The notes below the pieces were generated by a model. That model was not told the origin of the DNA. It saw only the letters and a program-made list of their open reading frames with translations, and did no database searches. DNA of 64,000 nucleotides from Candidatus Microgenomates bacterium (GTDB taxonomy: Bacteria > Patescibacteriota > Microgenomatia > UBA8517). This document shows, in pieces, positions 2,403 through 64,000 of this stretch. The position numbers were made by a program, and so were the translations under genes. Every line of letters starts with the position of its first letter. The stretch's first letter is position 1. Location: contig JBEKQV010000003.1 in NCBI GenBank assembly GCA_049519355.1, positions 83,646 through 147,645 on the forward strand, read 5' to 3'.

Positions 2403-3593
2403 CTATTTTGGGAAACCAGGGTTTATATAATTTTTAAGCTTGGAGATTTGCCACATAAGTACTGAATTTAAAGTCAGTATTAAAACAAAAATTAGGATTA
2501 GAGCGTTCCCTCCCAAAAAAATTCCTCCGATTAGGGCAACTATTGCCGCGCCCATAATGGTCACAACGTTATCCATTCCGATTCCGACCAACGCATCACC
2601 AATTCGTCCTTTAGGATTGGTGGTGTAGTCATGAATAACAAGAATCTCGCCGAGACACCCGACCACACCGGTTAACACTCCGGAAATGACAAAAGGAAGG
2701 CCCGTAATCACCGAAAAAGTTTCAACAGCTGTGACCATCGCCTCGGCTGCCAGAAGAATAGCCCCGCCAGATATTAAAAGATGCAGCCAGATGGTTACAC
2801 CGGATTTATGTTCGTAATACCTTTCTTCATTTTCAATTTCCGGTACGGGGCTTTTTTCTCTCTTGGTTTTTCTGAAACGAAAAATGATCACGATTGTTAA
2901 AACCAAAATCAAAAGCCCTATGGGCCTGACCAGCTGATATAAATCCCCAGTAATTCCGGCCGGAGGATTTGCAATCCTTCCAAAAATAACCATGCTAACC
3001 GCAACCACCATAGTCAAAAGTGTAAGTGCATTAATTACATCCATAGAGATATCAATTTCCTCCATCGCCGGCAGGTTTATGTGCTGACTCATTGGTTTAA
3101 CAGTTCCACCCTTTTTCAAAAAAGGAAAAATATTTATCGGATGGCCCAGTCTGTTGGCACTATTTTGCCGGAAAACGCACCAAATTGCGTAACCAATGTT
3201 ATAAATATTTGAGCCGAAAGTTGTCGCGGCGGCAATAATTGCAAAGTTTATCGCAGCAGCATAATCGGAATCCCGAAGCCTTAAGCTTATTACCGCGGCA
3301 ACAATTCCCAAAACCATGTCAGGAAAAGCAGTTCCAACCGATTGAAGCACACCGCCGGCAATTTTTGTCCGTTCACTTAAAACCTCTGTCGTCTCCTCGA
3401 TAATTCCCGCCGTCCCCTGAAGAACATAAAATGCTCCAAATCCGATAATAAGAATTATTCCCAGTATTTTCACCCAAAATGAGTTTCCGGAAGCTAAAAA
3501 ACCAACGACGTAAAACTGCAAAAAAGCTCCAACAACAAGCATGCTTAAAATGTATATGTACCTTCTTTGCTGAAATTTTTCAAACATAACCAA
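2403..3593 (-). CDS. Ca2+/cation antiporter (CaCA, YrbG-like) family membrane protein, putative
   Basis: 396 aa, about 10 TM helices. Two internal alpha-repeat-like segments: GTAFPDMVLGIVAAVISL...GSNIYNIGYAI and LTGVVGCLGEILVIHDY...GMDNVVTIMG. Confidence 0.4.
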   Translation of the reverse strand: MVMFEKFQQRRYIYILSMLVVGAFLQFYVVGFLASGNSFWVKILGIILIIGFGAFYVLQGTAGIIEETTEVLSERTKIAGGVLQSVGTAFPDMVLGIVAAVISLRLRDSDYAAAINFAIIAAATTFGSNIYNIGYAIWCVFRQNSANRLGHPINIFPFLKKGGTVKPMSQHINLPAMEEIDISMDVINALTLLTMVVAVSMVIFGRIANPPAGITGDLYQLVRPIGLLILVLTIVIIFRFRKTKREKSPVPEIENEERYYEHKSGVTIWLHLLISGGAILLAAEAMVTAVETFSVITGLPFVISGVLTGVVGCLGEILVIHDYTTNPKGRIGDALVGIGMDNVVTIMGAAIVALIGGIFLGGNALILIFVLILTLNSVLMWQISKLKNYINPGFPK

Positions 3594-4877: not shown

Positions 4878-6320
4878 TTAAGCAAATCCCGGAAAATAAT
4901 CGGTTTTGATTTGACTGTTCGCTACACTCAGTTGCCTAAGCGTATTCTTAAACCCGTCAACCATAGACTTTGGGCCCGATAGATAAAATATCCGGTTTTT
5001 ATAATCCGGAACTTCCTTAAAAATAAAATTCTCCTGAAAACGACCAACATTATAATAAGTTTTAATTCCAAGTTTATAATGAGCTTGATCAAAAACATCT
5101 TTATATACAAAATCCCCTTCTTTTGCGGAATACATCAGGACAATATCCCGCCTTTGGTTCGTATCGATTAAGTATTTGACCATGCTTCGAAATGGAGTAA
5201 CCCCTATTCCCCCCGCGATAAAAACCAATTTTTTGCCCATATCTTTCGGCATGGTAAAATCGCCGATGAGTTGTCCTGCGACAATTTTTTGCCCCGGAAC
5301 AAGATTCATTAACTTTCTTTTGAAAGAACTCGGAGGAGAGCCGACTTTAACCCCAATTCTTACTTCATCCTCGGTTGGACTGGAAGCCAACGATAAATAT
5401 CTTCTATTTCCCCTCGTATCAGGTTTTTCATGCTCAAGCGTCCATTCCATATATTGCCCCGGCGTAAAATTTACGTTATTGTCGGGAACAAAAACGAAAT
5501 CGATTAGGTCAGGTGCCAACCGGATTTTTTCTTTTAAAGTTAAAACCAATTTGTATTTCGGGCTTACGATATAAGAAAAGATATTGCCGATAATAAGGGC
5601 AATTTCTGGAGTTGTATAGATACTTCCGAAATGAACTTGCGGAGCAAACAAAAATCCGACAAGTGCACCGTACAAAATTCTTAAAGTTTTGGTTGGAGGT
5701 GTGGTTAAAGGTTCGGTTAACATTACGGCCGCGAAAAATATTAAGGGCGTATCACTAACCGATCTGATCCACCTTGCCGGTCCGATTAAAATTAATGCGA
5801 CAACTAAAAAACTCAAAACCATATCCCATCTTTTGATCTTCCTGACTATCAAAAATCCTCCTAGTATCACAACTGGAAGCATTGAGGATACTCCCACCCA
5901 CCAATCTGCACTTGCTCCAATTGCAAACGCAGTAATAGCAACGGAGATCGCAACCGGATTAAAGATGTGTTTTTTCCCGATTGCTAAAACAAATTTTGAA
6001 GTAACCATAAGTACAGCCGCCCAACCCAGAAAAATAACATCATGTATGGATTTTGGAGGCGCAATAATAAGGCCCAAAATTAGGGCAGAAATGATCCAGC
6101 TCTCAACATTTGCCTGAGCCTCATATACTTTGGCAAAAATTTTATTGGCCATCCCAGCAACAACGAGAAGAAAGGTAAATGAAAAAACATAACTTACGGG
6201 ATCGAAAGGAAGAACACCCGCGATGGAATAAATCAAGCCGACCACGCCCAACAAAATTAAAAAGTACAGAATCAATCTGTACATAGTGATGCTATTTAAA
6301 AAGTCGTCCAGGGCTTTCAT
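4878..6320 (-). CDS. Membrane-embedded FAD/NAD(P)-binding oxidoreductase: N-terminal multi-TM domain fused to a ferredoxin-NADP-reductase-like domain
   Basis: 480 aa. First ~235 aa are hydrophobic helices. C-terminus has the FNR-type FAD motif RRYLSLASSP, the NAD motif GGIGVTPF and the YLSGPKSMV tail. No Cys cluster for Fe-S. Confidence 0.6.
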   Translation of the reverse strand: MKALDDFLNSITMYRLILYFLILLGVVGLIYSIAGVLPFDPVSYVFSFTFLLVVAGMANKIFAKVYEAQANVESWIISALILGLIIAPPKSIHDVIFLGWAAVLMVTSKFVLAIGKKHIFNPVAISVAITAFAIGASADWWVGVSSMLPVVILGGFLIVRKIKRWDMVLSFLVVALILIGPARWIRSVSDTPLIFFAAVMLTEPLTTPPTKTLRILYGALVGFLFAPQVHFGSIYTTPEIALIIGNIFSYIVSPKYKLVLTLKEKIRLAPDLIDFVFVPDNNVNFTPGQYMEWTLEHEKPDTRGNRRYLSLASSPTEDEVRIGVKVGSPPSSFKRKLMNLVPGQKIVAGQLIGDFTMPKDMGKKLVFIAGGIGVTPFRSMVKYLIDTNQRRDIVLMYSAKEGDFVYKDVFDQAHYKLGIKTYYNVGRFQENFIFKEVPDYKNRIFYLSGPKSMVDGFKNTLRQLSVANSQIKTDYFPGFA

Positions 6321-7042
6321 TTCTTTACATATTTCTCAAAACCGCCAGTCATTGTCGCAATCCCCCGTGAGTCAATCATGTAACCTTCCAAACCTTCCCG
6401 CTTCTCAATAAATTCAATACCTTTTATCCCCATTGCAAACGCAGGAGTTGAAAACTTATCGGCTTCAAAAACGTCCGGACCAATTACCGTCAAACTGACA
6501 ATGTCCAAAATTATATTTTTCTTTCCGATAGGGTCATAGATATGCTGCCCCCTTTCATAAGTCCCGGATGTTGCAATTCCGCAATCGGAAAGTTCGAGAA
6601 CTTTAACAATCTCACTTACGTTAAATGGATTCCTAATTCCCCAAGTCCAATTTTTCCCGACGATTTCGGCGTCTCCCCCGGCATCAACATAAAACCGTTT
6701 GTATCCGAGTTTTTTTAATATTTCCGCTCCATTTTTAATTGCCCAGCCTTTTACAATACCTGAAGGATCAATTTTCCCGTCGAGTCTTCTAATATCAAAA
6801 TACCCGTTAGTCTCCTTTTTTAAATCCTCCGATAATCCCAAAATCATTTTCATCTCCGAAGAAACTTCTTCTCCTCTATTCAGTTTGGCAACCTGACTGG
6901 TTTCTTTATAAGGGCTATACTCTTCGTCCACGTAATTAAAATAATCGAAAACCTTTTGAAGATCTTTCTTGGTCTTTCGCAATTCATTCCCGGCAATTTT
7001 AACTATAACCGGCATCCCCATGATCAACCTTATTTGCTTCAT
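6317..7042 (-). CDS. apbE: ApbE-family FAD:protein FMN transferase (flavinylation enzyme)
   Basis: 241 aa. DPSGIVKGWAIKNGAEILKKLGYKRFYVDAGGD and GIATSGTYERG are typical ApbE core segments. It overlaps the upstream oxidoreductase gene by 4 bp (operon). Confidence 0.7.
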   Translation of the reverse strand: MKQIRLIMGMPVIVKIAGNELRKTKKDLQKVFDYFNYVDEEYSPYKETSQVAKLNRGEEVSSEMKMILGLSEDLKKETNGYFDIRRLDGKIDPSGIVKGWAIKNGAEILKKLGYKRFYVDAGGDAEIVGKNWTWGIRNPFNVSEIVKVLELSDCGIATSGTYERGQHIYDPIGKKNIILDIVSLTVIGPDVFEADKFSTPAFAMGIKGIEFIEKREGLEGYMIDSRGIATMTGGFEKYVKK

Positions 7043-7048
7043 ATTTGT

Positions 7049-7546
7049 TTAGCTGGCCTGAGAGAGAGCACTTTGCAATGACTGAATAAACGCCCCGCTT
7101 GTTGCTGTGGCACCACTAACTCCGTCAACCTGTGCCGACTGGGCCTGAATTGCTTCCTGAATAAGATACGGCATTGCTTGTGAATTAATCATTCTTGATG
7201 TGCTTCGGTCACTTGGATACTGCAAAAAGGTCACGTCAGTAATATTGCCGCCGAAAATCGTAACCTGCACCTGAACATTTCCGTAAAACGCATCGGCAAT
7301 GCTCCCTACATAAGTTCCATTCTTGTATCTTCCTTGAGGTGTCGCGGCCGGAACGGGAGTTTGAAGCGGCGCCTGTCCCGGTGTCGGGCCAAGTGTCGCA
7401 ACAGGAGTATCTGTCGGCAACGGGGTTGGAATAACCGTATTTGGTTTTATAACAATCGACGAAGCGCTCTCGTTCTCCAAATTTGTGTGCAGGGCGTAGA
7501 CAACAAAAATTGTTATTACTAAAGCAGATAACAAAAGCTTTCTCAT
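7049..7546 (-). CDS. Secreted FMN-binding domain protein, the likely ApbE substrate
   Basis: 165 aa. N-terminal signal/TM MRKLLLSALVITIFVVYAL, Pro/Thr linker, FMN_bind-type domain GSIADAFYGNVQVQVTIFGGNITDV...MPYLIQEAIQAQSAQVDGVSGATATS. It contains the [S/T]GAT flavin-attachment motif. Confidence 0.65.
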   Translation of the reverse strand: MRKLLLSALVITIFVVYALHTNLENESASSIVIKPNTVIPTPLPTDTPVATLGPTPGQAPLQTPVPAATPQGRYKNGTYVGSIADAFYGNVQVQVTIFGGNITDVTFLQYPSDRSTSRMINSQAMPYLIQEAIQAQSAQVDGVSGATATSGAFIQSLQSALSQAS

Positions 7547-26239: not shown

Positions 26240-26944
26240 TTATTTAGCCGACTTTTTCTTACCCTCCAGTATAGCTTCTTTAACCAAGCCAAGAACATAT
26301 TCAAGTGCTTTGCTGGCATCGTCATTCATAGGAATCGGATAATCAATAACATCGGGGTCGGAGTTGCTGTCAACAATTCCGATAACCGGAACTTTCTTCT
26401 CATTGGCCTCGTGAACCGCACCAGCTTCCCTTTTGGTATCAATCACAAAAAGAACGTCCGGAATATCGGTTAGTGTTTTTATTCCGCCAAAAAATCTCTC
26501 CAATCTTGCAATTTCCCTATCGATTAGAAGTCTTTCTTTCTTTGTATATTTGTTATAAACCCCCGAAGTCATGTTGACCTTCATTTCCTCCATTTTCTTG
26601 AGAGACTTTTTCATTTGGGAAAAGTTGGAGATTATTCCTCCCAACCATCTTTCGTTGATATAAGGAACTCCGGCTTCCAGCGCAACCTCGGCAACTTTAT
26701 CCTTGATCTGCTTTTTTGTTCCGAGAATCAAAACTGTTTTGCCCTCACGAATAGACTTGGTGATAAACTCCAACGCTTCCTCAAGGAGAGGTTTTGTCTT
26801 GGTTAAATCAAAAATATGAACTCCGTTTTCGGATCCAAAAAGATATTCCTCCATCTTGGGGTTCCAACGGCGGGTCTGATGTCCAAAATGGGCACCAGTT
26901 TCAAGTAGCGTATCCAGTGAAACGTTCGGCTTTGACATTATCAA
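26240..26944 (-). CDS. rpsB: 30S ribosomal protein S2
   Basis: LLETGAHFGHQTRRWNPKM signature. Canonical rpsB-tsf-frr order. Confidence 0.9.
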   Translation of the reverse strand: MIMSKPNVSLDTLLETGAHFGHQTRRWNPKMEEYLFGSENGVHIFDLTKTKPLLEEALEFITKSIREGKTVLILGTKKQIKDKVAEVALEAGVPYINERWLGGIISNFSQMKKSLKKMEEMKVNMTSGVYNKYTKKERLLIDREIARLERFFGGIKTLTDIPDVLFVIDTKREAGAVHEANEKKVPVIGIVDSNSDPDVIDYPIPMNDDASKALEYVLGLVKEAILEGKKKSAK

Positions 26945-27021
26945 TGTTGTTTCCTTTTGCCGCCGCAGATCGGAAGAATCCAGGAAACATGACCTGCGTG
27001 TGTATTGGTATTTTACCAGCC

Positions 27022-27528
27022 TTATTTCAAATTGGCAAGGGTTCTTTTATTAATCTCAATATTCTCCTCGGCAGCTTGAATTGCAGCAAAAGCCAAATGC
27101 TCCGCACTCATTGCATCCGAGTGGGCGTTGACATTCCCCAATTTAGCCGCAATCTCAGCCAGTTCCCTGACATTCTCACAAATCTCGGCAGTTTTTTGCG
27201 GAACCTCAATCGCCGTCAAAAGACCGGCCTTTATTTTTGCTTTGTTACCCATCTTATAGGCTTTCATTACCTCTTCAAAAGCACCCGAATCGCGGTCCGC
27301 AAGCTCGATAAGTTCGGCCCCGAGTTCGCTAGCCCTTTCGGCAATCCTAATCATCTCATCCTGAACGTGAGGATATTTTTTATTGCCAATCGTCAGATTG
27401 CAAACCATCTCGGTTAGCGATGCCGCCATAGCACCGACCACAGCCGCAACAGCTCCACCGCCGGGTGTGGGTGTTTTTGAGGAAACCTCATCCAAAAATT
27501 CTTCTATTTTTTGATCTTTAACTTTCAT
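27022..27528 (-). CDS. Formiminotetrahydrofolate cyclodeaminase-like protein (FTCD C-terminal domain, stand-alone)
   Basis: PTPGGGAVAAVVGAMAASLTEMVCNLT is the hallmark of the cyclodeaminase/cyclohydrolase family. Confidence 0.7.
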   Translation of the reverse strand: MKVKDQKIEEFLDEVSSKTPTPGGGAVAAVVGAMAASLTEMVCNLTIGNKKYPHVQDEMIRIAERASELGAELIELADRDSGAFEEVMKAYKMGNKAKIKAGLLTAIEVPQKTAEICENVRELAEIAAKLGNVNAHSDAMSAEHLAFAAIQAAEENIEINKRTLANLK

Positions 27529-28409
27529 TCGTATAACTTCTTTTCCAGGACCTGGTCAGATTTAAAAGTCTCCGCCTTAAATGTATTTTTTATTGCAGCA
27601 ACAAGAGATTCAAGCGGAATCATACCATATATTTCGGAGTTTTTGATCTTAACTCCCAGTTTTTCAGCTTCGGCCTCAACTGCGCGGTAAGCCGCGTCGA
27701 AGTTTGTCTTCTCATAATCGACCAAATTCATGGAAACCTGAGCCAACCCGTCCACTTCAAACCCTAAAGCCTTAGCTCCTGGTAAGCCCCCGTTTTTCTC
27801 ACGGATTATTCCTGCAATTTTTTTGGCAACTTCAACGTCAAGCGTTGAAAGATTTATATTGAAAGCAACTAAGTATTTTCTGGCACCGATTACCATCGCT
27901 CCGGCCGTGGCGTGCATTTTGTTGGGACCGAAATCCGGGTCCCTCATTTTTAATTTCAATCCTTCATATTCACCCTGCCTAACATCCGCCAAATTTCTGT
28001 ACTCAGGACGCGAGGCAGCTGCCTCATAAAGAAAAACAGGAATTTTAAGCTCCTCCCCGACTTTTCTTCCAAGCTTTTTGGACAACTCCACACATTCCTC
28101 CATTGAAACCCTGGAAACCGGAACAAAAGGAACAACATCAGTCGCTCCGATTCTGGGATGTTCTCCCTTATGTCTTTCCATATTGATAAGTTTTGTAGCA
28201 ACTTTTATAGATTCAAAAACTGAAGATAAAACTGCCTCCGGCTCCCCGACTATTGTAAATAGGCAACGATTGTGGTCTTTGTTGTATTCCAATTCAAAAA
28301 CCTTAACCGATTTGATAGTTTTAGCCGCATCAAAAATGGCATTAATGATTTTAAGGTCTTTCCCCTCGCTAAAGTTCGGCACGCACTCAACAATTTTCTG
28401 CATGGTCAA
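27525..28409 (-). CDS. Glutamate formimidoyltransferase (FTCD N-terminal domain, stand-alone)
   Basis: MQKIVECVPNFSEGKD...NRCLFTIVGEP start and two-subdomain length (294 aa) typical of the formiminotransferase domain. 4-bp overlap with the cyclodeaminase gene. Confidence 0.75.
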   Translation of the reverse strand: MTMQKIVECVPNFSEGKDLKIINAIFDAAKTIKSVKVFELEYNKDHNRCLFTIVGEPEAVLSSVFESIKVATKLINMERHKGEHPRIGATDVVPFVPVSRVSMEECVELSKKLGRKVGEELKIPVFLYEAAASRPEYRNLADVRQGEYEGLKLKMRDPDFGPNKMHATAGAMVIGARKYLVAFNINLSTLDVEVAKKIAGIIREKNGGLPGAKALGFEVDGLAQVSMNLVDYEKTNFDAAYRAVEAEAEKLGVKIKNSEIYGMIPLESLVAAIKNTFKAETFKSDQVLEKKLYE

Positions 28410-28427
28410 ATTATATCTTAATCGGGC

Positions 28428-29087
28428 TTATCTTTGAAGCTTCTTTTCAAAAATATCTTCCAAAACCTTCGCTACAGACTCTGAAACAACTTCAGGAGCT
28501 GGTTCTCCATTTATCACAAACCACTGCAATCCTCCCCAACCACTCGCAGACATTTCCCTGTATCCAGCAACAAGCCTATCCATATACTCAGGAGTTTCTC
28601 TGTCAAACGGATCACCGTTCGTGTCTTTGCCGCGGCGCTTCATTGAAGTCTCCCTAGAAATATCCAAAAGTAGAATCGCGTCGGGTTTAAGCTCTCCCAT
28701 TACAATGTCAGCAATCCTCAGGATTCGTTTTTGGTCTCCTCCTTCCGCATATCCCTGATAAGCCCCGGTCGATGTATAGCATCTATCACCCAAGACGTGA
28801 ACACCACTTTTAATTTTCGGGGCAACTAAACCGTCTACCCAAAACTTCCTAGCAGTAAAAAACATAACCATCTGCCCCTCGGCACCAATCAATCCTTCAC
28901 CTTTTAGGGCAAATATAAGTTCTCGAATTTCTTCACTTGAACCGACACCCCCTGGTTCACGAGTCGACACTACCTGCAACCCATTTCTAACAAGAAGTTG
29001 TCTTGCTATTTCAATTTGAGTTCCTTTTCCACAACCACCAACCCCCTCAAAAACCACAAATTTTCCTCTTTCTCCTTCTTGAGTCAT
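28428..29087 (-). CDS. tmk: Thymidylate kinase
   Basis: P-loop FVVFEGVGGCGKGTQ, TREPGG motif, LID region. Confidence 0.8.
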   Translation of the reverse strand: MTQEGERGKFVVFEGVGGCGKGTQIEIARQLLVRNGLQVVSTREPGGVGSSEEIRELIFALKGEGLIGAEGQMVMFFTARKFWVDGLVAPKIKSGVHVLGDRCYTSTGAYQGYAEGGDQKRILRIADIVMGELKPDAILLLDISRETSMKRRGKDTNGDPFDRETPEYMDRLVAGYREMSASGWGGLQWFVINGEPAPEVVSESVAKVLEDIFEKKLQR

Positions 29088-29092
29088 ATTTT

Positions 29093-29677
29093 TTAGTTAA
29101 GTCTCATCCCGATTTCTCTCAAAATATTTTCAACGTTAGCTGCATTGTAAAAATTTCTTGTTTCCGTTCTAACAGTTACAAATTTCATTCCGGGATTTTC
29201 ATCAATATAAGTTAATACCTCACCGCGGACAGCCTTTTCTTTCGGAGAATTCCCCCCTTCATCAACTAAAATTCCCAGGTCAGCTTTCTTAACCGCGCCA
29301 ATTTCAACCATCGGATCAAAAACACCACGATAAAGTTCCAGGTCTCTTTGGCTTATTAGCCCAAGTTTCCGCTCCGCTTGCATCTCCAATAAATCCATCT
29401 CAAATGACATACCCAAGATCACACTCTTTCCGGAATATTTTTTAATACTTTCAACCTTGTCAACCAAAAGCTGTATATGGAATCTTAAACTACTTTCCGC
29501 CGGATCTCTCAAATAGTCTCCCCGATATGGATTTCTAATCGAATTATTATTTATTAAGTGGGCACCAAGTTTTCCTGAAAGAATCACGGGTAAAAAAGAC
29601 TTTTCAAATTCTGAAACACCGAAAAAACCGATAATTTTCGGTTCTTTTGCAAATCTTTCCTTTAATTCTGCCAACAT
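29093..29677 (-). CDS. Hypothetical protein
   Basis: 194 aa, no P-loop or other motif recognised. Co-oriented and tightly packed with tmk. Confidence 0.35.
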   Translation of the reverse strand: MLAELKERFAKEPKIIGFFGVSEFEKSFLPVILSGKLGAHLINNNSIRNPYRGDYLRDPAESSLRFHIQLLVDKVESIKKYSGKSVILGMSFEMDLLEMQAERKLGLISQRDLELYRGVFDPMVEIGAVKKADLGILVDEGGNSPKEKAVRGEVLTYIDENPGMKFVTVRTETRNFYNAANVENILREIGMRLN

Positions 29678-29679
29678 AA

Positions 29680-29901
29680 TTACATTGATAAAGTCCGCCC
29701 AGGGACAGGATCAGGAGGTCCTTGTCTTTCACTCAAAGGCTTATGTTCAAAATTCGCACATTGAAAAAGATCTCCGTCAACTCTTTCGAAATATACATCT
29801 TTACCGTGTACCGGACAATCTGCCCTCACATAATCATCTTGAATTCCCTTAATAATCTTTTGAAAAATTTCCAAACCGCGTCGGGCAGTTCTTTCCACCA
29901 C
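29680..29901 (-). CDS. Small hypothetical protein with a Cys/His pattern (C-P-V-H...C...H)
   Basis: 73-aa ORF, 2-bp gap to the next gene. Possible zinc-binding mini-protein. Confidence 0.3.
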   Translation of the reverse strand: MVERTARRGLEIFQKIIKGIQDDYVRADCPVHGKDVYFERVDGDLFQCANFEHKPLSERQGPPDPVPGRTLSM

Positions 29902-29904
29902 GAC

Positions 29905-31704
29905 TTATACCCCCAACTCCTTTCTTTTTTTATCTGTCCATTTTTCCGATTCCCGCCGGGCAAGCGAGTAATCATTCATATCAACCTTCATACCGGCAAA
30001 CAAGTCCGGATGAACGGCACTGGCTTGAGTCGCCATCTCCTGAACTATATGCCTGTAATGCGAACGGCCTTGGGGACCGGTCCGAAGTTCGCCCATGTAG
30101 TACATTTCTCTAGCGGTTAAGTTAACATACCAATGCTGGATATAAGCAAACGCAACAGTATACTGTGCAACTTCGGGAAATTCTTTGTGGATTAATTCAT
30201 AAACTGGAGAGACAAGCTTAAGAGCGATTTCAATTTCATTAACAAAGGGCGAGGCCAAAACCTCTTTTTCGACATCATAACCCCATTTCGTCGTAAAAGG
30301 CTGACGCTCCTGGGTAAGCAGGCGGTGTCTGTGAAGATCTCTATAGTCGCCGCCTCTTGCCCAAAGTGCAAAAGTGTATCTCGAATTCTCAAAAGCCCTG
30401 GGAACTCTTTTAAATCTTACGTCCTCTCTTTTTGGGTTGTTATTGCCGGGGCTTCTTTGTTCAAATATCCTTTCAAAGATTTTTCTTCTCTCGTCCTTCG
30501 ACATTCCGACAACTCTCGCCCGAACCTCAGAGTAGTTAGGAGACGACCCCCCACCAAATATAAAAGCCGTTAGAACATCTACTTCCCCTGTCTTTGTGTA
30601 GTCAATAAGTTTTGACCAACCACCCCTTTCCATTTCTACCACACCCTTGAATTTCTCATCGGAAATTTCGTCACGGAGTCTCCTAATGTCTTTCTTATAC
30701 TCCTGGAGTTCCTTCCCCATTGGAGTATCAACCCTTCGAATAAATGAGGGTGTTACGCGCTGCAGTTCAGAAGCGATTTTAGAACCCCAATAACGCAACT
30801 CTCCCAATGGATGTCTGGCAATCCGGTTAATCAAATATTCGTATGATCTGCCGTTGCCGTACAAACCAATATTTGTCAGCGTAGAAAAAGTCAATAAATC
30901 TCTCAAATCATCAAAAACTTTGGCCCGGCGTGATTTTTCAAATGATGCATCACTTTCGTCATCTCCTTTTGGAAAAACGTCTTTTATATAGTTAAAGTAA
31001 GGCTCTACCAATCTAGCGTAAGTTCCAAAAAGAATATCCGTCATAGCTCGATAGGAACGCTCGTATACTGTGCCCTTTATTTCTCCCGGAACAACATATT
31101 TATAATTACCATCAGGAAGCTTGTCTGCAAATGAAACATACCTTGACGATTTTTCGATTGGTGAAATTCCAATTCTTTGATCCTCAATCTCTTTGGTTGC
31201 TACATTCGAGAGCCCTTCTATACAAAGGTGGATTCCTCCAAGTTCCGATATGGAATCGTCTCCAAAATCCACAAGCCATTTATTAAAAAAGTTTCTGCCT
31301 CTTTGAATATTAACAATATAATCAATGCCTCCATTGGTGTTCAAAAAATTAATCAGCTCAACAAATTTTTGCCGCGACAGTAGCGTTTCCTGCTGTTCCT
31401 TGTGGGACAAACTCGACCAATTTTTTTGACTTTCAGGATGAACAATCGGTTCTACATACTCTTTAAGAAATGTTCTGCGCATGCTTTCGGTTGCACGGCT
31501 ATATTTCGCCGACAAAGCCCCGATTACTTCCTCAGGAAGATGTTGAACAACAAAAACAGATTGATCAATATTGCTGAAAAACGGATTTAAGTACCGGACT
31601 TCCTCCGGAGTAAATTTTTCGGAAGTATATGGGGGAGCAAATTGTTCAAGATTCTCACCTTCGACTTCTTCCCGTCTAAAACTATGTGCGGCAAATTCCG
31701 GCAT
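29905..31704 (-). CDS. Large RHR-motif protein, tentatively a long flavin-dependent thymidylate synthase (ThyX-like) paralogue
   Basis: 599 aa. LHRHRLLTQERQ resembles the ThyX RHRx7-8S dUMP-binding signature and ALSAKYSRATE resembles the ThyX N-terminal AARVSY segment. It lies between tmk and MazG/dCMP-deaminase genes. The assignment is weak. Confidence 0.3.
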   Translation of the reverse strand: MPEFAAHSFRREEVEGENLEQFAPPYTSEKFTPEEVRYLNPFFSNIDQSVFVVQHLPEEVIGALSAKYSRATESMRRTFLKEYVEPIVHPESQKNWSSLSHKEQQETLLSRQKFVELINFLNTNGGIDYIVNIQRGRNFFNKWLVDFGDDSISELGGIHLCIEGLSNVATKEIEDQRIGISPIEKSSRYVSFADKLPDGNYKYVVPGEIKGTVYERSYRAMTDILFGTYARLVEPYFNYIKDVFPKGDDESDASFEKSRRAKVFDDLRDLLTFSTLTNIGLYGNGRSYEYLINRIARHPLGELRYWGSKIASELQRVTPSFIRRVDTPMGKELQEYKKDIRRLRDEISDEKFKGVVEMERGGWSKLIDYTKTGEVDVLTAFIFGGGSSPNYSEVRARVVGMSKDERRKIFERIFEQRSPGNNNPKREDVRFKRVPRAFENSRYTFALWARGGDYRDLHRHRLLTQERQPFTTKWGYDVEKEVLASPFVNEIEIALKLVSPVYELIHKEFPEVAQYTVAFAYIQHWYVNLTAREMYYMGELRTGPQGRSHYRHIVQEMATQASAVHPDLFAGMKVDMNDYSLARRESEKWTDKKRKELGV

Positions 31705-31788
31705 GATTTATTTCTTAAGAGTATTTACCAACAAATAAAAATCGTGTCAATACGCAAAGATTTACCCTCATAACTCAACAGTTAGTAT

Positions 31789-32145
31789 TTACCTTTTGTC
31801 TCCGCTTCCGTGAAGGGTTCCGCGTTTTTGGCGAGATGCAAGTTTTTCTAAATTCGCCTTAAAAACATCGGAGAATTTTATTCCCAGTTCGGTTGAAAGT
31901 TGGGCGGTATACCACATCATGTCGCCAATTTCCGCTTTAATTTCATCACGCCTCACGTTATTAATCTTTCCTTTGTCATCACGGATAAGTTTTTTAATTT
32001 TATTGGCAACTTCCCCCGCCTCTCCCATTAATCCAATGGTTGGATAAGAAAAATTTTTACCGATTTTCGGATAAACGGCGGTTTTCTTACACTGTTTTTG
32101 ATAATCATCAAAATCTGAAAAGGTCATTGAAAAAGATTTTATCAT
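31789..32145 (-). CDS. MazG-like nucleoside triphosphate pyrophosphohydrolase (all-alpha NTP-PPase)
   Basis: YPTIGLMGEAGEVANKIKK ... EIGDMMWYTAQLSTELGI are the two metal-binding EExxE/D-like helices of the MazG family. Confidence 0.65.
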   Translation of the reverse strand: MIKSFSMTFSDFDDYQKQCKKTAVYPKIGKNFSYPTIGLMGEAGEVANKIKKLIRDDKGKINNVRRDEIKAEIGDMMWYTAQLSTELGIKFSDVFKANLEKLASRQKRGTLHGSGDKR

Positions 32146-32162
32146 ATATTAATGTGACGACA

Positions 32163-32717
32163 ATGCTAGTTATCGGTATAACAGGAACTTTAGGTGCGGG
32201 AAAAGGAACCATTGTTGATTATTTGGTCTGGCAAAAAGGATTTAAGCACTTCTCGGTTGGAGATTTCATTAAAGAAAGCGTTATAAAAAAGGGGTTGGAT
32301 CCAAATCGCGATAATCTCCGTGTTGTTGGCAACGAAATTAGAAAAAAATTTGGCCCTGATTATTTTACTCGAATACTTTTTGAGCGCGCAAAAAAAACTG
32401 GGTCGGATTCAATAATAGAAAGCATTAGAAATCCCAAGGAAGTAGAGTTTATTAAGAAAAATGGTGGATATTTATTCGCCGTAGATGCAAATCAGAAAAC
32501 GAGATATGAAAGAATCAAGGATAGAGGTACCACCAAAGACATGGTAACTTTTGATCAATTTAAAATTCAGGAAGAAAAAGAAGGACAATCGAAGGATCCT
32601 AACGCTCAAAATTTACCGAAATGCATATCAATGGCAGATTATAAATTTGACAATAATGGTAGTATAAAAAAACTTTATGAAGAAGTCGAAAAAGTCATCA
32701 ACAAAATCAAAAGTTAA
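32163..32717 (+). CDS. P-loop nucleotide/nucleoside monophosphate kinase (dNMP-kinase or dephospho-CoA-kinase-like)
   Basis: Start at MLVIGITGTLGAGKGT (Walker A). The longer ORF from 32040 would overlap the divergent MazG gene. ~185 aa with a LID-like RYERIKDRG. Confidence 0.55.
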   Translation: MLVIGITGTLGAGKGTIVDYLVWQKGFKHFSVGDFIKESVIKKGLDPNRDNLRVVGNEIRKKFGPDYFTRILFERAKKTGSDSIIESIRNPKEVEFIKKNGGYLFAVDANQKTRYERIKDRGTTKDMVTFDQFKIQEEKEGQSKDPNAQNLPKCISMADYKFDNNGSIKKLYEEVEKVINKIKS

Positions 32718-32718
32718 A

Positions 32719-33213
32719 ATGATTCGAAAATATGCACGTCCCACTTGGGATGATTATTTTATGGAAGTTGCCGATGCCGTTTCCAAAAGAGCAACATGCG
32801 ACAGGGCAAGAAGCGGCTGTGTAATTGCTAAAGATAAACAAATACTGGCGACGGGTTATGTCGGTTCACCAATGGGGTTTCCCCACTGTGACGATGTCGG
32901 CCACGATCTCAGGAAAGCCTTCAATGAAGACGGAACAATTTCACAACACTGTGTTAGAACCGTCCACGCGGAACAAAATGCGATTTGCCAGGCAGCAAAA
33001 CGCGGGGTTTCTATCGATGGTGCAACCGTTTACTGCCGAATGACACCCTGCCGGGTTTGTACAATGCTGCTAATAAATTGTGGTATTAAAAGAGTTTATG
33101 CGGAAAGAAAATATCATACCGGGCGTGAATCCGAAAAGATCTTCAAAAAGGCTGGAATAAAAATCGTATATAAATATAACGAGATTCAGAAATACGCGAA
33201 TCAAAAGGCTTAA
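32719..33213 (+). CDS. dCMP deaminase (ComEB-like)
   Basis: Zinc motifs HAEQNAI and PCRVCTMLL (H-A-E ... P-C-x-x-C). Start at MIRKYARPTWDDYFM, 1 nt after the kinase stop. Confidence 0.8.
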   Translation: MIRKYARPTWDDYFMEVADAVSKRATCDRARSGCVIAKDKQILATGYVGSPMGFPHCDDVGHDLRKAFNEDGTISQHCVRTVHAEQNAICQAAKRGVSIDGATVYCRMTPCRVCTMLLINCGIKRVYAERKYHTGRESEKIFKKAGIKIVYKYNEIQKYANQKA

Positions 33214-35159
33214 TTAGTACCTGGTGCCGCTTCTTCTTTCTTGGGGCTTCTCCAACTCGCCCATTTGCAATCGGGGTAGCGTGAACAGCCAAAAAACTTT
33301 CTGCCCTTTCCCGTCTTTTTGACAATCACATCCCCGATTTTACATTCGGGACATTTAACTCCGACTTTTTCCAAATATTTTTCCGTGTATTTGCAATCGG
33401 GAAAACGGGAACAGGAAATAAACTTACCGAATCTTCCGGTCCGGACAACCAACTCTCCGATTCCACATTCCGGGCATTTTTTACCGAGCTTCTCAACTTC
33501 AATCTTTACCCTTTTTGCATTTTTCTCAACCTCCGATAGCCTCTTTTCAAAAGGTCCGTAAAATTCCTTAATCGGCGTCTCCCATTTAAGAATCCCATTG
33601 GCAATATCGTCAAGTTCCCCTTCCATCTGTGCAGTAAATTGATATTCAAAAATTCCGGGGAAATTATCAATCAAAAAATCATTAACTGCAACTCCGATTG
33701 CCGTCGGGACAAATTGCTTGCTGTCATTTTTCTCTACATAATTCCTAATTTGAATAGTAGAAATAGTCGGGGCATAAGTCGATGGCCGACCTATACCCAA
33801 CTTTTCCAAAGTTTTAATTAGCGAAGCCTCGTTATATCTTGCCGGCGGCTGGGTAAACTTTTGTTCCCCCCAAGTTTTTATTAAATCGAGACTCTCATCC
33901 TTCGAAACTTCGGGCAAAACTATAGCCGCTTCCGAATCCAACTTGCTCGGAATTACTTTTCTCCAACCGTCGAAATTCATGATTTGCCCGGAAGCTCTCA
34001 AAAGATAAACTCCCGCCGAAACATCGATTGTGGTTTCATCATAGATAGAAGGTGTCATCTGGCAGGCGACAAACCTCCGCCAAATCAAATCATAAAGTTT
34101 CGAAAAGTCTTGCTCTTCCAAGTTTATTTGATGATTGGAAACATCCGTCGGACGGATTGCTTCATGAGCTTCCTGCGCAACTTTTGAGGTAGTCTTGTAA
34201 AAACGCGGTTTTTCGGGCAAATATTTGTCCCCATACTCTTTCTTAATAAAATCGCGGGCCTTGCCAACTGCCGCCGCATTCAAATTAAGTGAATCGGTTC
34301 TATGATATGTAATCAAACCTTCCTCATATAATTTTTGGGCGATCGACATTGTCTTTTTGGATGACCATCCAAAAATTCTGGCTCCGGCCTGTGTCATTGT
34401 CGAAGTTGTAAAAGGAGCATAAGGACTTTTTACGATCTGCCGTTTTCTGACATCGACAACTTTATACTTTTCTTTCCCGAGTTCCCCTAAAATTTTATCC
34501 GACTCGGCCTTGGTCTTAACTTTGGCATTTTTATCGCCAATATTTACAAGCTGGACTGTAAATTCACTTTTGCCCTTAACTGTTGAGAAAATTTCCCAAT
34601 ATTCTTCTGACCTAAATTTTTCGATTTCCCTTTCCTTTTCAACAATCAACCGCACAGCAACCGATTGAACCCTTCCGGCTGAAAGTCCGACTCTTACCTT
34701 TTTCCAAAGCAGAGGGGAAAGTTTGTACCCCACAAGCCGGTCCAAAACACGCCTTGCCGTCTGGGCATCAACTAAATTTGTATCAATATCCCGAGGATTA
34801 TTAAGTGCTTCTTCAACCGCTTCCTTCGTAATTTCATGAAAAGTAATTCTTTCAATCTTATGCTTTCCGTCGATAATTTCTTTTACATGAGAGGCAATTG
34901 CTTCACCTTCGCGGTCAGGATCGGAGGCAATATAAGTAACTTTCGCTTTTTTACTTTTGGCGATAAGGTCGTTTATTGTCTGCTCTCTTTTCGGAACATC
35001 TACATACTGTGGAGCGAAATTATGCTCTATATCAACACCCAAGGTGCTTTTGGGCAAGTCCTTAATATGCCCCATTGTTGCCTCAACGTCGTAATCTGGC
35101 CCGAGAAAACGGCCCAGTGTTTTGGCTTTTGTTGGTGACTCGACGATAATTAAATCCAT
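33210..35159 (-). CDS. topA: DNA topoisomerase I
   Basis: Toprim start MDLIIVESPTKAKTLGRFLG, catalytic Tyr region, C-terminal Zn ribbons (CPECG...C..C twice). Start at the internal Met. Confidence 0.9.
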   Translation of the reverse strand: MDLIIVESPTKAKTLGRFLGPDYDVEATMGHIKDLPKSTLGVDIEHNFAPQYVDVPKREQTINDLIAKSKKAKVTYIASDPDREGEAIASHVKEIIDGKHKIERITFHEITKEAVEEALNNPRDIDTNLVDAQTARRVLDRLVGYKLSPLLWKKVRVGLSAGRVQSVAVRLIVEKEREIEKFRSEEYWEIFSTVKGKSEFTVQLVNIGDKNAKVKTKAESDKILGELGKEKYKVVDVRKRQIVKSPYAPFTTSTMTQAGARIFGWSSKKTMSIAQKLYEEGLITYHRTDSLNLNAAAVGKARDFIKKEYGDKYLPEKPRFYKTTSKVAQEAHEAIRPTDVSNHQINLEEQDFSKLYDLIWRRFVACQMTPSIYDETTIDVSAGVYLLRASGQIMNFDGWRKVIPSKLDSEAAIVLPEVSKDESLDLIKTWGEQKFTQPPARYNEASLIKTLEKLGIGRPSTYAPTISTIQIRNYVEKNDSKQFVPTAIGVAVNDFLIDNFPGIFEYQFTAQMEGELDDIANGILKWETPIKEFYGPFEKRLSEVEKNAKRVKIEVEKLGKKCPECGIGELVVRTGRFGKFISCSRFPDCKYTEKYLEKVGVKCPECKIGDVIVKKTGKGRKFFGCSRYPDCKWASWRSPKKEEAAPGTN

Positions 35160-58654: not shown

Positions 58655-60346
58655 TTAAATTATATGAAGTATTTGGCCTATGTTTTGACCCGCTGCCAGC
58701 CCGGCTTTTATTTTAGGCCATACAACTTTCGCCGTAACCATTTTTGGCTCCTCTACTTTTGTCAAGTCTAAAAGGCCAAGTTTTTCCAAATCAAAAACCG
58801 AAAACAGATCCAATCCGGCAACATAAACCAAGTTTGATATTTCTGTTCCCCGATTATCCTCAGACATAAGGAAATCCAATACAGTCTCTTGTTCGATATA
58901 ATCAATTGCATCCGAAGTCGGTGCATAACCGCTCGCATCGGTTAGCGGAGTGTTTCTCCTAAATATCCGCATCGCCCTTCTAAAGGAATTATCTACGGCT
59001 TCCTGAAATTTGTCTTTGTCTTCAAATAGACTTTTTAGCGGCACTCCAAAATTTCTTTCTGAATAAAGGTCCGCAATGGCCAGAAAAACATCCTTAAAAC
59101 TTCCGCCCGCCATTTTACTTTCCAACCCGGTAAAAAAGTAAGGTTCCGCTCTTCCTTTCATCCCCGCAACCATTTCTTGTGTTTTACCTTCGATATACAT
59201 TGCGGCTCCTTCCGAAAGAATGCCTGTTCTGCCCATCGATTTTTGTTCAAACAACTTTAACGAAACAGGTCCGGCCAGCTCCTTGTTTACATGCCGCAAG
59301 ACATGCCCTTCGATCTCGTGGGCTAAAACCGTCAAAGTATCAACCAGTCCCCTTTCAAAATTTTTCGGGATAGCAATTTTTCTGACCACATCAGAACCGG
59401 ATTTATACTGAACCGCCAAAGTAGACCTGCCGTCTTCGATAACCACATTCCACTTCCGGTCTCCCGAATTAAGTCCATATTCATTAAGAACCATTTCCGC
59501 CAGTACCTTCGCCTGTCCGGAGTTTACCAATACCGAGTTAAACTTCCGGTACTCCGGAGTTTCTATGGGTAATTCCGCTTTCCTTTTTGATGCATATTGA
59601 CGGAGCCGCCCGGGAATACTTTCAAACATTCCTTTGGCGTTAAATTCCGACCCAATTCCATTGAGAAAATGGTCTATTCTCTCCAGCTTCCTCGAATCCA
59701 CTCCCTCATTTTCATAAAGATTTGCAAGTGCCACATTTACTCTTTTCCTGTAAATATTTAAGATTACGCTTTGTCCCTCAAAAAAATCTCCATTATTTCC
59801 GGATTGGGAAATTTCTTTTTTTAGCTCGGCCTTAAGAATCCTGAGATTTTTAATTTCTTCGGCAAGGTCTTCGGGATCAACAACTCTTTTAATTCTTACG
59901 GGATTTTCAACTCCGCCTACATCTCCTTTTGATGCAATCAGTTCTTCCGTAAATTTATTTTTTGCCCACTCATAAGAAAAATCATGAGCTTTTTCCCTTT
60001 TATCTTTGGGAATCTTCGATAAATCCGCTTCCATAAAAATTCTCTCGATGTCCTTTGCGTCAACCTCGCCTAAACGCGGCGTCTCCTTACCGCCTAAATA
60101 GATGTCGGTAAAAAGTTTCTTCCCTTCTTCGGTTGTAAAAGCTCCTGGGTAAATTGTATGCTCCGTAATTTCAAAATGTGTGGCTCTCTCATATTTGGTA
60201 AAAAGCCCTTCCTCGAAAACTTTCAGCCGGACTTTTTCATCCAATGACAACTCCAGGGGCTTAACGGCTAATAACGATTCCATATTTCCAACAGCTTCTG
60301 AAGCTCTCAGAGGGTACGAATAATCGGATTCTGTAGTACCGCTCAT
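58655..60346 (-). CDS. HExxxH metallopeptidase-like protein, inferred DUF1704 / MATCAP-like (gluzincin carboxypeptidase family)
   Basis: 563 aa. LAHEIEGHVLRH (H-E-x-x-x-H spacing) and, ~40 aa downstream, GILSEGAAMYIEG resembling the QEGLA Glu-ligand motif of DUF1704. It is the last gene of a tight operon with three ATP-grasp ligases. Confidence 0.45.
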   Translation of the reverse strand: MSGTTESDYSYPLRASEAVGNMESLLAVKPLELSLDEKVRLKVFEEGLFTKYERATHFEITEHTIYPGAFTTEEGKKLFTDIYLGGKETPRLGEVDAKDIERIFMEADLSKIPKDKREKAHDFSYEWAKNKFTEELIASKGDVGGVENPVRIKRVVDPEDLAEEIKNLRILKAELKKEISQSGNNGDFFEGQSVILNIYRKRVNVALANLYENEGVDSRKLERIDHFLNGIGSEFNAKGMFESIPGRLRQYASKRKAELPIETPEYRKFNSVLVNSGQAKVLAEMVLNEYGLNSGDRKWNVVIEDGRSTLAVQYKSGSDVVRKIAIPKNFERGLVDTLTVLAHEIEGHVLRHVNKELAGPVSLKLFEQKSMGRTGILSEGAAMYIEGKTQEMVAGMKGRAEPYFFTGLESKMAGGSFKDVFLAIADLYSERNFGVPLKSLFEDKDKFQEAVDNSFRRAMRIFRRNTPLTDASGYAPTSDAIDYIEQETVLDFLMSEDNRGTEISNLVYVAGLDLFSVFDLEKLGLLDLTKVEEPKMVTAKVVWPKIKAGLAAGQNIGQILHII

Positions 60347-60388: not shown

Positions 60389-61330
60389 TTAAGAAAATAG
60401 CGATTTTAAGATGTCTTTTGTGGCATCATATTGGTGCCCCTTAGAGTCCATCCAATGCAAATCATAACCCGGATCTGTGTTAAGTTCGATTATGCAGTAC
60501 GGAGAATTTGCCTTAGTTATATCGGGGCAAATTATGTCTACACCCGAAAACCGGAGGTCAAAAAGTTTAACCGCACGCAAAACCATCTCCCTAAATTTGG
60601 GATTAACAATATTTGTTACATCCTCCACCACTCCGCCGGTGTGAATATTTGCGTTTCTTCTCATCAAAATCTTTTTTCCTTTGGAGGGAATATCGTTTAT
60701 TGTTAGATTCTGCTCCGCCAAAACTCTTTCGACTTCAAAACCCAACTTTAATGAATCTCCTCCCCGGCCGATATTATATTTGGCAACAAGCTCAGAAATT
60801 TTTGTTTTTCCGTCTCCGATAATAGCCGGCGGGACACGTCTGGCAACCGCCAAGATTTTTCCGTCAAGAACCAGGAAACGGAAGTCCTCACCCGGAAAAA
60901 ACTCTTCCACCAAAACCTCATCATAACTTTCCCGTATTTTTTCAAAAGCTTTTTTTAAAACCTCAAGATTTTCAATTTTGACAATTGCCATTTTTCCACC
61001 CAGTGAAGTATCCGGTTTGGTGACCAAAGGAAAATTTATTTTGCCGGTTTTTATTGCGGCCGAAACTTCTTTCCATTCTCCCGTTAAAATTCCTCTTGGC
61101 GCCGGGAAACCTGCATCTCTAAGAACCCTTTTTGTTAAATCTTTCCTTTTAACAATTTCAAAGTCGACTATCGAGTTAAAAGGAAAATGCTTGCCGATTG
61201 TCAAAACACTTTTACCACCTTTTGATATCTTGTAGACTCTACGGTCGGACGGATAAACCTCAACCAAATATCCCAATCTTTCGGCTTTTTCAGCAAAAAC
61301 CTCCATCAGCATTTTGTGTTTGGTTTTCAT
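60389..61330 (-). CDS. ATP-grasp ligase, cyanophycin-synthetase-N-domain-like
   Basis: 313 aa. FPLVTKPDTSLGGKMAIV, VLVEEFFPGEDFRFLVLDGKILAVARRVPPAIIGDGKTKISELV (CphA-like RVPA..GDG segment), IIELNTDPG. Confidence 0.55.
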   Translation of the reverse strand: MKTKHKMLMEVFAEKAERLGYLVEVYPSDRRVYKISKGGKSVLTIGKHFPFNSIVDFEIVKRKDLTKRVLRDAGFPAPRGILTGEWKEVSAAIKTGKINFPLVTKPDTSLGGKMAIVKIENLEVLKKAFEKIRESYDEVLVEEFFPGEDFRFLVLDGKILAVARRVPPAIIGDGKTKISELVAKYNIGRGGDSLKLGFEVERVLAEQNLTINDIPSKGKKILMRRNANIHTGGVVEDVTNIVNPKFREMVLRAVKLFDLRFSGVDIICPDITKANSPYCIIELNTDPGYDLHWMDSKGHQYDATKDILKSLFS

Positions 61331-63506: not shown

Positions 63507-63511
63507 AATTT

Positions 63512-64000
63512 TTAACTCCGGATGAGCTTTCTAAATCTGTAGAATTCCATTACCCTGAGTCCGGTATATTTACCCAAAATCAGATCCGCCGCCGCAACCA
63601 GAATCAGAGAAACCTCCGGATTAAGAAGAACATATTGCTGCAAGGGTTGGAATGTTAGGAACAAGAATGAAATTAAAGACAAAAGAAGTGTCTCAAAAGT
63701 TAGATTTAAGGCGGTTTTAACGCTTTTACCAAGCTGTACTCTGGTAAAGTCCTCTGCCAAAAGCACCAGGAAAAGAACGGCGAAGATAGAAACGTTGGCA
63801 AGGTCCGAAAAATTAAGAACCGGCGCTAGGAATAGAACCCCCAAAACCCCGAGGACCACAGCCCAAAGAATGAACGCCATCCTCGGCAGATATTGGAGCT
63901 TGACCTTAAGCTTCCTGAGAATCATCCTCATGGCAGTTGAGACGACTACAATAACCAGGAAAAGTCCGATTCCGACGATTGGACCTGTCGCTACAAAAAC
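63512..64000 (-). CDS. Partial: C-terminal region of a polytopic membrane protein, candidate 7TM_transglut-type protein; the ORF continues beyond the right window edge
   Basis: The frame stays open to base 64000 (…VFVATGPIVGIGLFLVIVVVSTAMRMILRKLK…). At least 4 TM helices, then YTGLRVMEFYRFRKLIRS*. 5-bp gap to the ATPgrasp_ST gene. Confidence 0.4.
   Translation of the reverse strand, partial: VFVATGPIVGIGLFLVIVVVSTAMRMILRKLKVKLQYLPRMAFILWAVVLGVLGVLFLAPVLNFSDLANVSIFAVLFLVLLAEDFTRVQLGKSVKTALNLTFETLLLSLISFLFLTFQPLQQYVLLNPEVSLILVAAADLILGKYTGLRVMEFYRFRKLIRS

Follow-up and report, generated by a model that had tools for sequence, protein, structure and literature searches.

A tandem ThyX protein from a Microgenomates genome with catalytic residues apparently divided between its two domains

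Introduction

Many bacteria and archaea make thymidylate solely through the flavin-dependent thymidylate synthase ThyX, which is an antibiotic target. Canonical ThyX enzymes, such as those of Thermotoga maritima (TM0449, 1O26), Mycobacterium tuberculosis (Rv2754c, 2AF6/3GWC), Helicobacter pylori (3N3Y) and PBCV-1 (A674R), are 216-258 amino acids long, carry one domain per chain and form homotetramers in which all four sites are the same. Three identical subunits contribute to every site, which makes the roles of the single subunits hard to dissect. Here we describe a 599-amino-acid long form of ThyX that is encoded in a 64,000-nucleotide stretch of DNA (hereafter the window) from contig JBEKQV010000003.1 of a Candidatus Microgenomates bacterium. 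It shares Pfam family, fold and predicted reaction with the canonical enzymes, and differs from them in comprising two diverged ThyX domains in a single chain.

The contributions of the subunits to the canonical site are known from the M. tuberculosis and H. pylori structures (reviewed in PMC6514825). Subunit A provides R95-H96-R97 and Arg199, which contact the phosphates of flavin adenine dinucleotide (FAD), the flavin ring and deoxyuridine monophosphate (dUMP). Subunit B provides Ser71 and Arg190, which contact FAD, while subunit C provides Ser105, Arg107 and Tyr108, and also Arg87, which bind dUMP and form a lid over the reacting atoms (PMC6514825). The description of the PBCV-1 structure is concordant, with Gln75 and Arg182 coming from one monomer and Ser88 and Gln89 from another. 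In T. maritima, R174 activates dUMP, and the substitutions S88A, R90A and Y91A slow the methylene-transfer step (PMC8316439).

Two solved enzymes are of interest for comparison with the long form. Thermus thermophilus Thy1 (6J61, 270 amino acids) has an extra C-terminal domain, and the ThyX of Corynebacterium glutamicum (3FNN/3GE9, about 250 amino acids) has been called atypical; both contain a single ThyX domain with an unsplit signature. The reconstruction of a multi-subunit site within one chain is known from the monomeric herpesvirus dUTPase, in which a duplicated and fused subunit keeps complementary subsets of the motifs. The likeness to the long ThyX is one of analogy, as fold and reaction are unrelated and the dUTPase has one site per monomer, compared with the two per dimer that we propose below. 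A literature search for a tandem, fused or duplicated ThyX, or for a complementary split of its residues, returned no description; its coverage was incomplete and it is not proof of novelty. The predicted function is ordinary and already annotated; the tandem architecture, with the two composite sites in place of four that it implies, is apparently undescribed.

Results and Discussion

The long thyX gene occupies positions 29905..31704 of the window on the minus strand, as do all features within it that are given below. It begins with ATG, encodes 599 amino acids and has its stop codon at 29905-29907; the call draws on the list of open reading frames (ORFs), Pfam Thy1, homologs of about 600 amino acids, a structural model and Foldseek matches. 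The whole protein matches Pfam Thy1/ThyX (PF02511; 191 profile positions, gathering score 24.8 bits) in two stretches, with 94 bits and E = 1.3e-26. When scanned alone, residues 1-325 scored 56.3 bits, with residues 137-320 covering profile positions 39-191, and residues 326-599 scored 41.7 bits. All three scores are above the gathering score, and each half separately covers most of the profile. A single-sequence phmmer search of the PDB sequences with the 599-residue protein gave a chance match alone (E = 0.1), and a family profile of 37 relatives was required for alignment to the ThyX sequences of the PDB. With this profile the N half aligned to residues 65-227 of M. tuberculosis ThyX 3GWC/2AF6 and the C half to residues 61-211 of H. 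pylori ThyX 3N3Y. A hidden Markov model (HMM) of the C half aligned to residues 56-204 of TM0449.

An AlphaFold2 (AF2) model, calculated from the alignment of the relatives, has a mean predicted local distance difference test score (pLDDT) of 89.4 and a predicted template-modelling score (pTM) of 0.86. It is assigned to the ThyX fold, which has a central alpha/beta domain and helical top and bottom domains. When the model was compared to the PDB with Foldseek, the top 50 matches were all ThyX, with a probability of 1.00 and target-normalised template-modelling scores of 0.56-0.70. Each of these matches spans about 190-240 columns, which is about one half of the protein, and the solved ThyX structures among them, including those of T. 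thermophilus and C. glutamicum, are all single-domain. By profile and by fold, the 599-residue protein belongs to ThyX, and it is a tandem of two diverged ThyX domains joined by a helical linker.

A preliminary description of this DNA, made from the sequence, had suggested either an oversized or duplicated ThyX or an unrelated new family. The former is borne out: both halves exceed the Thy1 cutoff and align to solved ThyX enzymes, the profile resemblance is far above chance, and the confident model finds ThyX alone among its structural matches. The same Thy1 profile and structure matches refute an unrelated family. The two motifs pointed out at the time, RHR and ALSAKYSR, are both present in the ORF, within residues 457-468 and 63-70 respectively.

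In order to compare the two halves with the canonical site, both were mapped to TM0449 (Tm), after its sequence had been checked to be identical to the 1KQ4/1O26 chain, and equivalences are also given to M. tuberculosis ThyX (Mtb). Conservation was counted over 138 representatives at 50% clustering, unless stated otherwise.

The chain starts with an N-terminal extension (residues 1-49; 31558..31704), of which residues 1-13 are disordered in the AF2 model. It carries a conserved PFF[ST]NxD motif, in which P41, F42, F43 and N45 are invariant among the 37 close relatives; the motif is weaker yet recognisable among the 138 representatives. The N-half ThyX domain follows (residues 50-322; 30739..31557), delimited with Pfam Thy1 and the Mtb alignment, and is the proposed donor of the substrate loop. 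A helical insert of about 66 residues (71-136; 31297..31494) separates its first motif from G-D-D-S-I, and the model places helices at 75-88, 101-124 and 133-147. This insert is shorter in members of 505-560 amino acids, and in many representatives the alignment covers a short piece at the N terminus and then resumes only at about residue 125-135. The inter-domain linker (residues 323-363; 30616..30738), defined by the AF2 secondary structure, consists of a long helix (328-351), after which the pLDDT falls to about 70 at residues 351-360. The C-half ThyX domain (residues 364-570; 29995..30615), delimited with Pfam Thy1, 3N3Y and TM0449, is the proposed donor of RHR and of the Arg174 equivalent. 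In the C-terminal tail (29908-29994), R583 is found in 134 of the 138 representatives, and the Microgenomates share an ARRESE motif. The tail and the PFF[ST]NxD motif are conserved segments that are specific to the long form.

The N half includes most of the motifs of a ThyX domain. ALSAKYSR (residues 63-70; 31495..31518) appears to be the counterpart of Tm A26-A-R-V-S30-F, with the S69 region equivalent to the S30 motif, as judged by motif and position without a printed alignment. It lies on helix 58-68 directly after strand 50-53 of the model, a ThyX-like placement; S69 and R70 are kept in 136/138 and R/K67 in 127/138. G148-D149-D150-S151-I152 (31249..31263) corresponds, through the Mtb alignment, to Mtb G68-H69-F70-S71 and Tm G52-H53-E54-T55, and S151, at the Mtb Ser71 position, is invariant (138/138). 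The signature of the N half, D175-Q176-R177 ... K185-S186-S187-R188-Y189 (31138..31182), was aligned to Mtb R95-H96-R97 ... S105-Q106-R107-Y108 and reads D-Q-R-x8-S-S-R-Y. Its RHR is degenerate, with the third Arg alone kept (R177, 133/138), and position 175 is D in 70, R in 23 and W in 15 representatives. The Ser-x-Arg-Tyr loop is intact, with S186 and R188 in 138/138 and Y189 in 136/138. R268 (30901..30903) is the counterpart of the dUMP phosphate ligand Tm Arg147/Mtb Arg172, according to the N-half HMM against TM0449 and the Mtb alignment; it is R in 135 and K in 3 representatives. Tm R165 maps to R286, which is Arg in just 79/138, and Tm R174 maps to R294, a position with R in 47 and K in 63.

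In the C half, LHRHRLLTQERQ (residues 457-468; 30301..30336) was aligned to Tm R78-H79-R80 and contains an intact R459-H460-R461 (138, 133 and 137 of 138 respectively). The Tm segment L87-Y91 is without a counterpart there in the TM0449 mapping. The RHR is followed by L-L-T-Q-E-R-Q-P-F, in which a family-specific T-Q-E-R-Q loop, with Q465, R467 and Q468 moderately conserved, replaces Ser-x-Arg-Tyr. Both the TM0449 and the 3N3Y alignments place R541, within E539-L-R541-T-G-P-Q545 (30070..30090), at Tm Arg174/Mtb Arg199, and it is kept in 136/138. R532, at Tm R165/Mtb Arg190, is kept in 128/138. The phosphate-binding Arg has been lost from this half: in A513-Q514-Y515 (30160..30168), it is Q514 that the TM0449 alignment puts at the Tm Arg147 position, and this is Q in 95/138 and R in just 6/138. 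The Tm T55/Mtb Ser71 position is occupied by R436, and the residue mapping yielded no C-half counterpart of the Tm A26-A-R-V-S30 motif.

Across the chain, the FAD and dUMP ligands Tm R78, H79, R80, S88, R90, Y91, R147, R165, R174 and T55 (Mtb S71) thus have counterparts in R459, H460, R461, S186, R188, Y189, R268, R532/R286, R541 and S151. All are present, and each except R286 is kept in at least 128/138. According to the mapping to the TM0449, Mtb and H. pylori enzymes, the N half keeps the residue set of subunit C and the C half that of subunit A. The pattern holds in the 37 close relatives, in 79 genome-locus proteins (from the candidate phyla radiation (CPR), DPANN, Terriglobia and others) and in the 138 representatives. 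On this mapping, each half retains a complementary part of the catalytic residues, in a split that is near-invariant. The preliminary description had noted that the Ser expected after RHR was missing. This holds for the canonical spacing behind the C-half RHR; the Ser itself is not lost, since it sits in the other domain, in the loop K185-S186-S187-R188-Y189. Consequently, the contiguous RHRx7-8S (+ R-Y) signature is not found within one domain of the 599-residue protein.

That neither half alone carries the full RHRx7-8S signature could also be expected of a catalytically dead ThyX relic with a structural or regulatory role, or of an unrelated family with an RHR tripeptide by chance. We give very little credence to either. 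All canonical catalytic residues occur once per chain and are near-invariant over 138 divergent representatives, which reads as selection for catalysis, and the profile and fold evidence for homology to ThyX is decisive against an unrelated family.

From the family, fold, tandem architecture, residue mapping, conservation and genomic linkage we infer the activity, the assembly, the halves that face each other and the number of active sites. The tandem-fused ThyX, with catalytic residues divided between its halves, probably converts dUMP to thymidine monophosphate (dTMP) and works as a dimer of fusions with two composite sites. The predicted reaction would use methylene-tetrahydrofolate, FAD and reduced nicotinamide adenine dinucleotide phosphate (NADPH). 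From the N half would come S186, R188 and Y189 of the mobile substrate loop, R268 to bind the phosphate and S151 to contact the flavin. The C half would supply R459-H460-R461, for the FAD phosphates, the flavin ring and a dUMP contact, and R541 for activation of the uracil. Paired, two fused chains would make up a pseudo-tetramer that corresponds to the canonical D2 tetramer. Because canonical ThyX draws the two residue sets from different subunits, an N half that faces a C half across an interface of the A-C type would create two pockets with the full residue set, in which the C half acts as subunit A and the N half as subunit C. Thymidylate would be made in these two pockets, and most of the dUMP ligands would be missing from two reciprocal ones. 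Unlike the canonical tetramer, with its four sites, the long form has the residue set once per chain, which allows no more than two canonical sites for every four domains; it further differs in an Asp for His53, in the 66-residue helical insert and in its conserved terminal extensions.

Several observations weigh against this arrangement. The protein scores 42.8 bits against the NCBIfam equivalog TIGR02170 (thyX), below the cutoff of 87.9 bits, although that model was derived from single-domain enzymes, unlike the tandem protein. When the two halves were compared profile to profile with hhalign, no significant similarity emerged (probability 0.4%). A duplication is indicated solely via the Thy1 match of each half, and could represent either an internal duplication or the fusion of two old paralogs. 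Two canonical positions are not kept. The position of Tm His53, which stacks on folate/NADPH in the canonical enzyme, is D149 here (Asp in 125/138, His in 13/138), and the handling of folate or NADPH may therefore differ in the long form. Mtb Arg87, a subunit-C ligand of dUMP, corresponds to N167 in the N half, which has no Arg there. The facing of N and C halves across the A-C interface is deduced from the residue logic. The donor of the subunit-B residues appears ambiguous as well: the N half has the invariant S151 with R286 (79/138), versus R532 (128/138) in the C half, which has R436 in place of Ser71.

The halves might instead pair like with like, so that the N-half loop faces the N-half D-x-R and the C-half RHR faces the C-half T-Q-E-R-Q. 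This would give two kinds of non-canonical pocket, of which one could be an N-N site that catalyses with the first Arg and the His missing, and the other a C-C site that binds flavin or NADPH only. Indeed, the N half is an almost complete ThyX (S30-like motif, T55 equivalent, R80, S88, R90, Y91, R147 and partly R174), an Arg still stands at position 175 in 23 of the 138 members, and both R436 and the loop of the C half show conservation, not random variation. However, every pocket would then lack part of the residues found necessary by mutagenesis, and the N-half equivalent of Arg174 is R in merely 47 and K in 63 of 138. In addition, RHR and R541 are conserved in the half that has no loop, and the loop in the half that has no RHR; their meeting at one site is the simplest explanation. 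Such pairing seems unlikely to us.

If the N and C halves do face each other in composite sites, the two remaining pockets could have a conserved second function, as a dedicated NADPH/flavin-reduction site or as an allosteric site that senses nucleotides. They would use D175-x-R177 and R/K294 of the N half and the T-Q-E-R-Q-x-[FL] loop, R436 and Q514-Y515 of the C half. We regard this as unlikely, and mention it because the C-half loop, R436 and Q514-Y515 are conserved. Were it true, steps that are run in turn in the one pocket of canonical ThyX would be physically separated, and the long form would be a natural ThyX of a two-site type rather than a half-dead one.

Searches for relatives indicate that the long form is widespread. 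A word-indexed search returned 928 relatives of about 600 amino acids, several of them named "thymidylate synthase ThyX" or "FAD-dependent thymidylate synthase". In species-representative genomes, 391 loci were located, in many Patescibacteria lineages, in Aenigmatarchaeota (DPANN), in Terriglobia and in others; the Terriglobia loci lie on multi-megabase contigs. With a Terriglobia member as the query, more than 2,000 further proteins of 550-560 amino acids were found, and the long form is abundant in Acidobacteria, on contigs of up to 6.4 Mb. Exhaustive searching of 1.84 billion cluster representatives with HMMER identified 929 clusters at E ≤ 1e-30, mostly of 505-610 amino acids. The approximately 930 clusters of relatives span CPR bacteria, DPANN archaea, Acidobacteriota, Actinomycetota and Armatimonadota, with Ferrimicrobium and Armatimonadota among the named members. 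No long ThyX was found in the viral contigs searched. The long form is therefore a large, old and automatically annotated branch of ThyX that is not peculiar to the Microgenomates source genome. The preliminary description had considered the protein the least understood large one of its gene cluster, a claim that does not hold, as NCBI and JGI already name its relatives ThyX or FAD-dependent thymidylate synthase.

In a published survey, Acidobacteria were ThyX-positive and ThyA-negative in 6/6 genomes (PMC5954106). This would fit a long form that suffices by itself for thymidylate synthesis, unless those genomes also carry a short ThyX. The ThyX of Chlamydia trachomatis (CT632) has been characterised biochemically and used in assays (PMC3498832). 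If CT632 belongs to the long form, activity is already proven and the architectural reading alone is new. With a length of about 529 amino acids, it resembles the many long-form members of 505-560 amino acids. Chlamydia was not found among the cluster names, those obtained being Levybacteria, Ferrimicrobium and Armatimonadota.

With the proposed division of labor, the long form would offer the donor of RHR and Arg174 and the donor of the Ser-Arg-Tyr loop as separately mutable domains, and thus a tool for the study of subunit roles and of half-of-sites behavior. For annotation, it is relevant that equivalog models and the classic RHRx7S motif test both miss the long form. In CPR and DPANN, reduced genomes retain a predicted de novo synthesis of dTMP beside salvage enzymes.

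The genes around the long thyX also point to dTMP synthesis. The dTMP kinase gene tmk (28428..29087, minus strand; TIGR00041, 116.9 bits versus a cutoff of 83) is in the same tightly packed gene string. A MazG domain protein (31789-32145), a P-loop kinase (32040/32163-32717, plus strand) and an enzyme of the dCMP deaminase type (32677/32719-33213, plus strand) are the further neighbors. Profile scans recovered in the window all four of these genes that the preliminary description had named, and its statement that no other thyA or thyX is present held within the window: Pfam scans of approximately 57 other ORFs detected neither thyA (PF00303) nor a second Thy1. The relatives show a recurring order of topA, long thyX, a slot of 0.6-0.8 kb, tmk, rpsB and tsf. 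In 26/80 loci the long thyX has a tmk homolog within 8 kb, and in loci L002 and L003 the two genes are directly adjacent or overlap. The conserved linkage to tmk and to salvage kinases, together with the absence of thyA and of a second thyX from the window, supports a role in dTMP synthesis.

This context bears on whether the protein could be a Thy1-fold flavin methylase that acts on a nucleotide other than dUMP, such as uridine monophosphate (as polyoxin PolB does), dCMP or another pyrimidine. Its score under the thyX equivalog cutoff, the replacement of His53 by Asp, the large helical insert and the extra conserved N- and C-terminal segments would all agree with a changed substrate, and a ThyX relative that forms ribothymidylate is mentioned in PMC5954106. 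We nonetheless find this highly improbable. The residues that read the uracil and the phosphate are kept (R188=R90, R541=R174, R268=R147, S186=S88), and the gene is found among tmk, thymidine or deoxynucleoside kinases and dCMP deaminase. Moreover, the long thyX is the sole thymidylate synthase candidate in the window, and in many small genomes it is a housekeeping-type gene between topA and rpsB rather than part of a secondary-metabolite cluster.

Two genes lie immediately 3' of tmk (27022..28409, minus strand), a formiminotransferase (27525-28409; FTCD_N 230.6 bits, FTCD 78.5 bits) and a formimino-tetrahydrofolate cyclodeaminase (27022-27528; FTCD_C 170 bits), which are separate, overlapping genes. 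The pair also directly follows tmk in locus L011 (11174-12600), with 75-84% identity. In a reduced genome, it places an entry point for folate one-carbon units next to a thymidylate synthase that depends on folate.

The slot between thyX and tmk varies among the loci. It holds a deoxynucleoside kinase in L011 (9753-10571), a TK1-type thymidine kinase in L001 (9751-10308) and an HD-domain protein in L021 (9813-10382), and in the window an orphan ORF of 194 amino acids (orf194; 29093-29677, minus strand). No homolog of orf194 was found in 5.8 billion proteins, and it had no Pfam, NCBIfam or PADLOC match. An in-register Smith-Waterman alignment to the L011 kinase was weak but significant (z=7.1, 0/500 shuffles), and the P-loop is degenerate, GVSEFEKS versus GPVGVGKT in the L011 kinase. 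The ORF may be a decaying or repurposed kinase. A putative gene of 73 amino acids (29680-29901, minus strand), with C-x2-H ... C-x4-H, is located 3 nt past the thyX stop and 2 nt before orf194; it had no family match and no counterpart in the 80 related loci.

On the other side of thyX, the P-loop kinase and the deaminase are separate genes in the window (TAA 32715-32717, ATG 32719), and form one fused ORF of 355 amino acids in L001 (6364-7431). The 225-residue kinase ORF called from 32040 overlaps mazG, and its likely start is M42 at 32163. With the PADLOC "dCTPase" defence model, the kinase and deaminase parts gave matches at E=1.5e-21 and 2.3e-18; against the NCBIfam "anti-phage dCTP deaminase" they scored 47 and 57 bits, far under its cutoff of 400. 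Instead of a plain dCMP deaminase and nucleoside monophosphate kinase, the two genes may represent a housekeeping relative of the kinase-deaminase enzymes used in defence. For the long ThyX itself, PADLOC gave no defence-system match. Promoter and terminator scans of 26800-33400 were at chance (13 versus 12.7 expected; 10 versus 6.7) and were not used.

Farther away in the window, two ORFs on the minus strand, of 563 amino acids (58655-60346) and 396 amino acids (2403-3593), had no Pfam match at E ≤ 1e-4. In a flavin-handling gene string at 4878-7546 (minus strand), an RnfD/NqrB-like membrane protein carries a fused NAD-binding oxidoreductase domain; the other products are an ApbE flavin transferase and an FMN_bind protein. 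Four consecutive genes at 60389-63931 (minus strand) encode two RimK-like ATP-grasp proteins, a "sugar-transfer associated" ATP-grasp protein whose tail is Zn-protease-like, and a 7TM domain of a type usually found joined to an inactive transglutaminase; together they look like a cluster of the peptide-modification type.

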